Positions 37,408 through 39,614 are shown, counted from the stretch's first letter. The stretch: 64,000 bases of DNA from Escherichia coli (GCF_041886205.1 NZ_CP169029.1), one strand, 5' to 3'. Program-made: numbers and translations. Notes: a model not told the origin generated them from the letters alone.

Positions 37408-39614
37408 GTGGACTGGCTTCTTGATGTTTTTGCTACCTGGCTCTACGGCTTAAAAGTAATCGCGATAACGTTAGCGGTCATCATGTTCATCAGTGGGCTG
37501 GACGATTTTTTTATTGATGTCGTCTACTGGGTACGCCGCATTAAACGCAAGTTGAGTGTTTATCGCCGCTACCCGCGAATGAGTTACCGCGAACTGTATA
37601 AACCAGATGAAAAACCGTTAGCGATTATGGTTCCGGCGTGGAATGAAACGGGCGTCATCGGCAATATGGCCGAGCTGGCGGCGACCACGCTCGACTATGA
37701 AAACTATCATATCTTTGTTGGCACCTACCCCAACGACCCCGATACTCACCAAACGTGCATAAGGTAGTCTGCGCGCGTCCTGGCCCCACCAGCAAAGCCG
37801 ACTGCCTGAACAACGTGCTGGACGCCATCACCCAGTTTGAGCGTAGCGCCAATTTCGCTTTTGCTGGTTTTATTCTGCATGACGCCGAAGACGTAATTTC
37901 ACCGATGGAATTGCGTCTGTTCAACTATCTGGTCGAGCGTAAAGATCTGATTCAAATCCCGGTATACCCATTCGAACGCGAATGGACGCACTTCACCAGC
38001 ATGACTTACATTGATGAGTTTTCAGAACTGCATGGCAAAGATGTTCCGGTGCGTGAAGCCCTCGCCGGACAGGTGCCCAGCGCAGGCGTCGGTACTTGTT
38101 TCAGCCGCCGCGCCGTGACCGCACTGTTAGCTGACGGTGACGGTATTGCTTTCGACGTGCAGAGTCTTACTGAAGATTACGACATTGGTTTCCGCCTGAA
38201 AGAAAAAGGTATGACGGAAATTTTTGTCCGTTTTCCGGTGGTGGACGAAGCCAAAGAACGCGAGCAGCGTAAATTTTTACAGCACGCGCGGACGTCAAAC
38301 ATGATCTGCGTGCGCGAATATTTCCCCGATACCTTTTCGACTGCGGTTCGACAAAAATCTCGCTGGATCATCGGCATTGTTTTCCAGGGCTTTAAAACCC
38401 ATAAATGGACCTCCAGCCTGACGCTGAACTACTTTCTCTGGCGCGACCGCAAAGGGGCAATCAGTAACTTTGTCAGCTTCCTCGCGATGCTGGTGATGAT
38501 CCAGCTTTTGCTGTTGCTGGCGTATGAAAGTTTGTGGCCCGATGCCTGGCATTTCCTTTCTATTTTTAGCGGCAGCGCATGGTTAATGACCCTGCTGTGG
38601 CTAAACTTTGGCTTGATGGTTAACCGCATCGTGCAGCGAGTGATTTTCGTCACTGGCTACTACGGCCTCACGCAGGGCCTGCTTTCCGTCCTGCGTCTTT
38701 TCTGGGGCAACCTGATTAACTTCATGGCCAACTGGCGCGCGCTAAAACAGGTACTCCAACACGGCGATCCACGTCGCGTCGCGTGGGATAAAACAACGCA
38801 TGACTTCCCCAGCGTGACTGGCGATACCCGCTCGTTGCGCCCGTTAGGCCAAATTCTGCTGGAAAATCAGGTCATCACTGAAGAACAACTCGATACAGCA
38901 CTGCGTAATCGCGTCGAAGGTCTACGCCTGGGCGGTTCAATGCTGATGCAGGGGCTGATTAGCGCCGAGCAGCTGGCACAGGCGCTGGCAGAGCAAAACG
39001 GCGTGGCGTGGGAATCCATCGATGCCTGGCAGATCCCTTCCTCGCTGATTGCCGAAATGCCGGCCTCCGTGGCGCTGCATTATGCGGTACTGCCGCTGCG
39101 TCTGGAAAATGATGAGTTAATTGTCGGCAGTGAAGATGGTATTGACCCGGTTTCGCTGGCGGCCCTTACGCGTAAAGTCGGACGCAAAGTGCGTTACGTC
39201 ATTGTTCTGCGGGGACAAATTGTCACAGGGTTACGTCACTGGTATGCACGCCGACGCGGTCACGATCCGCGGGCAATGTTGTACAATGCGGTTCAGCATC
39301 AGTGGCTCACGGAACAGCAGACCGGTGAAATCTGGCGGCAATATGTGCCGCATCAGTTCCTGTTCGCCGAAATACTGACCACGCTCGGTCATATTAATCG
39401 TTCAGCAATTAACGTGTTGTTATTGCGCCATGAACGCAGTTCTCTGCCGCTCGGCAAGTTTTTGGTCACCGAAGGCGTTATCAGCCAGGAAACGTTGGAT
39501 CGCGTCCTGACAATTCAACGCGAATTACAAGTTTCGATGCAATCACTATTACTCAAAGCAGGTTTAAACACAGAACAGGTTGCGCAACTGGAGTCCGAAA
39601 ATGAAGGAGAATAA
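37408..39614 (+). pseudogene. nfrB: nfrB (family 2 glycosyltransferase, phage N4 adsorption protein B) broken by a frameshift near codon 113
   Basis: Two adjacent ORFs (37408-37767, 119 aa; 37755-39614, 619 aa) in different frames that together read as one NfrB; frame 1 ends ...GTYPNDPDTHQTCIR*, frame 2 is open from 37701 and continues ...PNVHKVVCARPG. Confidence 0.75.

Follow-up and report, generated by a model that had tools for sequence, protein, structure and literature searches.

The nfrB gene in the window (the whole 64,000-nucleotide stretch of E. coli DNA analyzed here) has lost 31 bp within its GT2 domain, a deletion that takes out codons 114-124 and shifts the reading frame by -1, and we are highly confident that this allele is a genuine, derived and irreversible loss of function. 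The allele marks one E. coli clone, which comprises N1, wlxctx60 and more than 100 other sequenced samples. By analogy with characterized nfrB mutants it is predicted to be a null allele whose carriers have lost the Nfr/NGR glycan and resist N4-type phages.

Gene identity and the 31-bp deletion

The gene lies at positions 37408-39614 on the plus strand and is 2,207 nt long versus a normal length of 2,238 nt; it matches the corresponding locus of strain wlxctx60 at 100%. The first-pass annotation of the window had named it nfrB, and this assignment is borne out by 98.7% nucleotide identity to K-12 and by its cusRS / nfrB-nfrA-ybcH context, with cusR, cusS, nfrB, nfrA and ybcH following one another on the plus strand around 37.4-43.5 kb. 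Orthology is equally apparent from the wider comparison, which gave 98.7-100% nucleotide identity to annotated nfrB with conserved flanking genes (5,029 complete genomes).

The ribosome-binding site UAAGG (37396-37400, plus strand; Shine-Dalgarno sequence as given in PMC9841429) and the GTG start within GUGUG (37406-37410) are the same as in K-12, so that translation of the 5′ fragment should start normally. In PMC9841429, nfrB is among the catalogued E. coli AUGUG/GUGUG initiation sites, where it is listed without predicted start-site ambiguity and with very low protein abundance. Downstream, nfrA (39601-42573, plus strand), which encodes the outer-membrane TPR/beta-barrel secretin partner, is an intact gene for a 990-aa protein, as annotated by PGAP at the identical locus of wlxctx60, and its first 14 nt lie within the end of nfrB. 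The third gene of the nfrBA-ybcH operon, ybcH (42574-43464, plus strand), is likewise intact and encodes a DUF4434 periplasmic protein. Both the nfrB/nfrA overlap and the operon structure have been described (PMC8669469).

Two open frames share the nfrB coding region on the plus strand. The first (37408-37767) begins at the GTG at 37408 and encodes a 119-aa product ending ...GTYPNDPDTHQTCIR, which consists of NfrB residues 1-113 followed by six frameshifted residues (HQTCIR) and a premature TAG brought into frame by the shift (37765-37767). The second follows a stop codon (37698-37700) and stays open from 37701 (KLSYLCWHLPQRPRYSPNVHKVVCARPG...) up to 39614; it encodes ...YSPNVHKVVCARPG... plus the remainder of NfrB, with native residues P125-E745 encoded from 37749. 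Its earliest start-type codon is the GTG at 37755, which would give a product of 619 aa. No later change restores the reading frame, and the 3′ part remains in the -1 frame until its native stop codon at 39614. The first-pass annotation had reported the early stop at 37765-37767, the continuation in another frame open from 37701 and a net difference of -1 between the two, and all of this, including its peptide strings and coordinates, proved correct.

Alignment with K-12 MG1655 and with the closest relative, ET201, revealed one single clean gap of 31 bases at the junction 37748/37749, and reconstruction of the ancestral sequence agreed with this placement. The missing segment (GCGTGATGTTGACGAAGTGTGCGCTCGCTTC) corresponds to nt 342-372 of K-12 nfrB and begins at the third position of codon Q114 and extends through the end of codon F124. 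The two frames differ by -1 because these 31 bases are absent relative to K-12, ET201 and some 5,000 complete genomes. From lengths of about 745 aa for the K-12 protein and about 735 aa for the fragments together, a deletion of roughly 30 bp had been favored at first pass over a single-base change; K-12 NfrB indeed has 745 aa, the native residues kept here number 113 + 621 = 734, and alignment with K-12 sets the loss at exactly 31 bp. Restoring the 31 bases yields an unbroken 745-codon ORF whose sole difference from K-12 is A649T, and the restored protein shows 0 aa differences from ET201 NfrB besides the stop codon that ET201 itself carries.

Comparison of the junction flanks with the deleted ends found no shared bases, no microhomology and no direct repeat. 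Because flanks and segment ends share no bases, the placement of the deletion is unambiguous. A search for hairpins in the ancestral region found none that was unusual (DNA fold z-score +1.67), and on these grounds we rejected a deletion mechanism acting via repeats or a hairpin. A phase-variable, reversible locus was also rejected, the deleted 31 bp being unique and outside any repeat or repeat pair. Products of 113, 115, 118 and 119 aa gathered in one protein cluster were considered as a sign of a deletion hotspot; this idea was dropped because the cluster by construction gathers only short N-terminal fragments.

Occurrence among genomes and authenticity of the junction

A megablast search with positions 37300-39700 as query against 5,426 complete E. 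coli genomes matched the nfrB locus in 5,118 of them, full-length in 5,029 and as a partial match only in 89, and no nfrB match was present in 308. In all genomes listed except one, the 2,401 bases of the query spanned 2,432 bases of the subject. A 48-nt probe centered on the junction, which is unable to seed on wild-type genomes, matched wlxctx60 (NZ_AP045833.1) only among the 5,426 complete genomes. This strain was isolated from the feces of a Japanese black bear in Gifu, and PGAP/RefSeq labels its nfrB as pseudo, 'frameshifted'. Since upwards of 5,000 genomes keep the 31 bases and, among the complete genomes, the junction occurs in wlxctx60 only, the deletion is derived. The nearest relatives without the deletion (ET201 and others) diverge from the window by about 0.1% across the locus.

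The same junction is present in the draft scaffold JH965297.1 of E. coli N1 (GCA_000303635.2), which shows no difference from the window across 6,360 bp, and in three Logan assemblies (SRR27876928, ERR10124709 and ERR13624319). Exact matches to the 119-aa product are recorded for 139 sample blocks (NCBI, ENA and Logan), and 105 contigs encode exactly the 619-aa product; four contigs were retrieved, and all four carry the junction, at 0-4 SNPs from the window plus one extra indel. The locus thus has both hallmarks of a frameshifted pseudogene, namely a disabling indel relative to intact orthologues, here the 31-bp deletion, and a lesion reproduced across independent assemblies, here wlxctx60, N1 and the three Logan assemblies.

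It is extremely improbable that the real genome still has the 31 bases and that sequencing, assembly or consensus calling dropped them: although the junction occurs in just 1 of the 5,426 complete genomes and its authenticity rests on concordance among assemblies, those that carry it (the N1 draft, wlxctx60 and the three Logan runs) were made years apart with differing methods and differ mutually by SNPs, the exact truncated product recurs across the 139 sample blocks, the loss of 31 bp from non-repetitive sequence is atypical of homopolymer or consensus error, and the other pseudogenes over the same 64 kb of wlxctx60 are all IS-associated. Because many independent assemblies carry the identical junction, a sequencing or assembly error is ruled out to the extent that assemblies allow, and the frameshift, for which the first-pass annotation had named such an error as the refuting outcome, stands as genuine.

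The window and wlxctx60 differ by 5 SNPs over 21258-64000 (42.7 kb), with a few more to the left. Their single-base differences are all transitions (24876, 32577, 35896, 41101 and 61816, and also 12859 and 17024), and at four of the five positions within 21258-64000 an A in the window corresponds to a G in wlxctx60. Position 35896, in cusS, is A in the window and in E. coli N1, and G in wlxctx60 and the three Logan assemblies. One contig that carries the 31-bp deletion, ERR13624319_44, has a further 1-bp loss near 38207, leaving ORFs of 152 aa and 467 aa, which is either secondary pseudogene decay or an assembly error of that run. A further downstream loss of this kind in the same clone is what a gene already dead would be expected to show.

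Away from nfrB, the IS elements between entD and ybdK (18000-23000) form an unusual cluster in the window. It contains two copies of IS421 (IS4 family), 99.56% identical and in inverted orientation (18075-19443 and 19927-21295), each followed by a copy of hokE (starts at 19602 and 21454, minus strand; one with V8A), together with a duplicated 113-bp flank (18000-18112 and 19852-19964) and an IS150 at about 21527-22966. K-12 has a single IS421, a single hokE and no IS150; wlxctx60 has a single IS421 interrupted by IS1A, plus IS150, and the IS421/IS1/hokE arrangement of the window differs from that of wlxctx60 at 18.0-21.3 kb. The IS421-hokE module looks to have been duplicated with the IS flipped; alternatively, the arrangement may be an assembly artefact of a draft scaffold.

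Consequences for the protein and the pathway

NfrB is a c-di-GMP-activated GT2 synthase of a ManNAc-based exopolysaccharide (PMC8669469; PMC8669472), and in the model of PMC8669469 the polymer is secreted by NfrA. DgcJ is the dedicated cyclase, and the glycan (NGR) is the primary receptor of phage N4 (PMC8669469; PMC8669472). On K-12 NfrB, Pfam places the GT2 domain (Glyco_tranf_2_3) at residues 70-332/382 and MshEN at residues 542-628, and hydrophobic segments occupy residues 4-42 and 360-388, the latter linking the two domains. A search for a solved structure of the deleted segment found sequence-detectable PDB relatives for the MshEN part of NfrB only, and we therefore mapped the break by Pfam boundaries and motifs.

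With Pfam boundaries of 70-332, the break at residue 113/114 falls within the catalytic GT2 domain. The 5′ fragment retains the N-terminal hydrophobic segment 4-42, PAWNE (76-80) and NDPD (109-112), and the 3′ frame carries DAED (D169), TED (D267), QKSRW (W330), the segment 360-388 and the MshEN c-di-GMP-binding domain. The first-pass annotation had described the damage as an uncoupling of the N-terminal transmembrane part from the catalytic domain; the protein is split, as it said, but the cut runs through the GT2 domain rather than in front of it, and PAWNE and NDPD stay on the 5′ side. No single chain contains a complete GT2 domain, since its motifs are divided between the fragments and residues 114-124 are deleted.

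Scores against NCBIfam NF008411 (cyclic di-GMP-activated glycosyltransferase NfrB equivalog; cut-off 1,170 bits) were consistent with this map. The 5′ fragment reached 210.2 bits and the 3′ fragment 1,074.2 bits, both under the cut-off, whereas intact K-12 NfrB scored above it with 1,332.7 bits. The 3′ fragment spans profile positions 121-722 only, and positions 110-120 are in neither fragment. The MshEN domain itself is unaltered in the 3′ frame, where it was recognized by NF053729 (71.6 bits) and, on the 619-aa product, by Pfam MshEN.

The 31-bp loss within the GT2 domain, by removing codons 114-124 and shifting the frame by -1, makes translation from the normal GTG end after 119 codons. We propose that functional NfrB would then not be made, the ManNAc-based Nfr/NGR exopolysaccharide would not be polymerized, and N4 and other NGR-dependent phages would be unable to adsorb. 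A truncation at codon 114 should be null because in published nfrB genetics both active-site and null mutants lose N4 plating. None of NfrB D169A, D267A and W330A restores N4 plating (PMC8669469), and no N4 plaques form on mutants without NfrA or NfrB (PMC8669472). A phage-selected nfrB W391* mutant and the Keio ∆nfrB strain are resistant to several phages and are complemented by intact nfrB (PMC12548472). BL21, which is without nfrAB, is not infected by N4 (PMC7553319). Polarity would probably also lower the expression of ybcH and of nfrA, which overlaps nfrB and is translationally coupled to it; such an effect is likely given this overlap and the 1.8 kb between the premature stop and nfrA.

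The lesion is confined to nfrB. Both nfrA and ybcH are intact, as is dgcJ in wlxctx60, and the pathway as a whole has therefore not decayed. The 3′ part of nfrB in the window has no further lesions, and because the gene is nearly unchanged apart from the deletion (0 aa versus ET201, 1 aa versus K-12), its inactivation appears to be recent.

We also considered that function might be kept, either by a reinitiated 3′ fragment working alone or in a split enzyme, or by ribosomes shifting by -1 within 37701-37767, which would give a nearly full-length protein minus 11 residues. A GTG of the other frame (37755) lies close to the stop at 37765-37767, which can permit weak termination-reinitiation, and the experimentally tested catalytic residues and MshEN are all within the 3′ frame, which is free of further lesions in the window; with the gene otherwise near-unchanged, some residual low-level activity of a reinitiated 3′ fragment is conceivable. 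However, a scan upstream of the candidate restarts 37755, 37815 and 37905 found no purine-rich sequence resembling a Shine-Dalgarno sequence, and the frame overlap 37701-37767 contains no slippery heptamer of the X XXY YYZ type. The 3′ product would be without the N-terminal membrane segment, the first beta-alpha-beta of the GT-A fold and the nucleotide-binding motifs PAWNE and NDPD, and residues 114-124 would be missing from every possible product. Moreover, both fragments score under the NCBIfam NfrB cut-off, the two-frame arrangement, seen in 1 of 5,426 genomes, lacks conservation, and a sister contig has gained a second frameshift. We therefore regard retained function as very unlikely and keep to loss of function as the reading of the allele.

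Two further accounts of the divided gene were rejected. Programmed ribosomal frameshifting was discarded since there is no slippery heptamer and the two-frame arrangement occurs in 1 of the 5,426 complete genomes, and an internal promoter or terminator was discarded since consensus scans of nfrB stayed at chance level.

Recurrent nfrB inactivation and comparison with known systems

Natural nfrB null alleles other than this one are common. W11* (TGG to TAG, equivalent to window 37438-37440) is present in 87 of the 5,426 complete genomes, CFT073, Nissle 1917 and ATCC 25922 included, and its haplotype in the CFT073 group is 47-49 nt from the nfrB haplotype of the window. The nfrB of ET201, only 2 nt from the window allele, also has W11*, apparently independently. 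PGAP treats W11* inconsistently, with a pseudogene labeled 'internal stop' in CFT073 and a 728-aa CDS starting from an ATC codon in ET201. Q114* (CAG to TAG, window position about 37747) is recorded in 257 sample blocks on three haplotypes separated by 34-49 nt, and E119* (GAA to TAA, in the deleted segment) in 127 sample blocks on two haplotypes 40 nt apart. Among the complete genomes, the Q114* probe gave 1 match and the E119* probe 2 matches, which are not confirmed carriers because their identity is only 96.1%. The presence of Q114* and E119* on divergent haplotypes suggests either repeated independent inactivation or spread by recombination. Outright absence of nfrB accounts for a further share of natural loss, at about 6% of the complete genomes. 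Literature searches on natural nfrB pseudogenes or recurrent nfrB loss found no paper, and those on the source strains found nothing relevant.

These alleles bear on whether the null was fixed by positive selection, through predation by NGR-dependent phages or a motility cost of the exopolysaccharide, or by neutral drift with a dispensable glycan. Laboratory phage selection gives nfrB nonsense mutants (PMC12548472), and motility can be impeded by NfrB-made EPS (PMC8669469). Natural nulls recur (W11* in the 87 genomes and ET201, Q114* on three haplotypes, E119* on two), nfrB gave no match in 308 complete genomes, and in the window clone nfrB alone is affected, with nfrA, ybcH and dgcJ intact. 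On the other hand, such recurrence may merely reflect very deep sampling of a dispensable gene, and the look-up of exact short products is biased towards early truncations. We consider positive selection possible but the less probable course, and offer only tentatively the view that the 31-bp deletion is one case of recurrent parallel nfrB inactivation driven by NGR-targeting phages or by the cost of the exopolysaccharide.

Events of this kind are known, the gene is well characterized, and RefSeq already flags the sole complete-genome carrier; the recurrent natural loss of nfrB is only a mildly novel angle. The loss-of-function reading has practical bearings all the same. Isolates of the clone (N1, wlxctx60 and relatives) are predicted to be non-hosts for N4 and NGR-dependent phages, which bears on the choice of phages and indicator strains, and the 31-bp junction is a handy marker of the clone. 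The existence of several unrelated nfrB nulls, among them those of CFT073 and the probiotic Nissle 1917, suggests that in nature the NGR glycan is frequently dispensable or under counter-selection. If the selection reading were true, phage resistance would commonly arise in nature through loss of NGR, which would affect the host range of N4-like and NGR-dependent phages.

Compared with its K-12 orthologue (b0569; WP_000383932.1), the window gene has the same cusRS / nfrB-nfrA-ybcH locus and the same GUGUG start and UAAGG Shine-Dalgarno sequence, but it is without nt 342-372 and frameshifted, and no single product passes the NCBIfam cut-off. The W11* allele of CFT073, Nissle 1917 and ATCC 25922 likewise cuts nfrB short early on, in a whole natural lineage that keeps nfrA intact, and is annotated as a pseudogene; it differs in arising from TGG to TAG at codon 11, in lying on another haplotype, 49 nt away, and in being found in 87 complete genomes versus 1. 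BL21(DE3) is also without functional NfrB, and its non-infection by N4 is the phenotype predicted for the window allele; both genes are gone in that strain, whereas in the window nfrA and ybcH are intact and nfrB alone is broken. The phage-selected nfrB mutants (p.W391* in TK001) and the Keio ∆nfrB strain resemble the window allele in being disruptive nfrB mutations, but they come from deliberate selection with resistance measured, whereas the window allele is natural and known from sequence alone.
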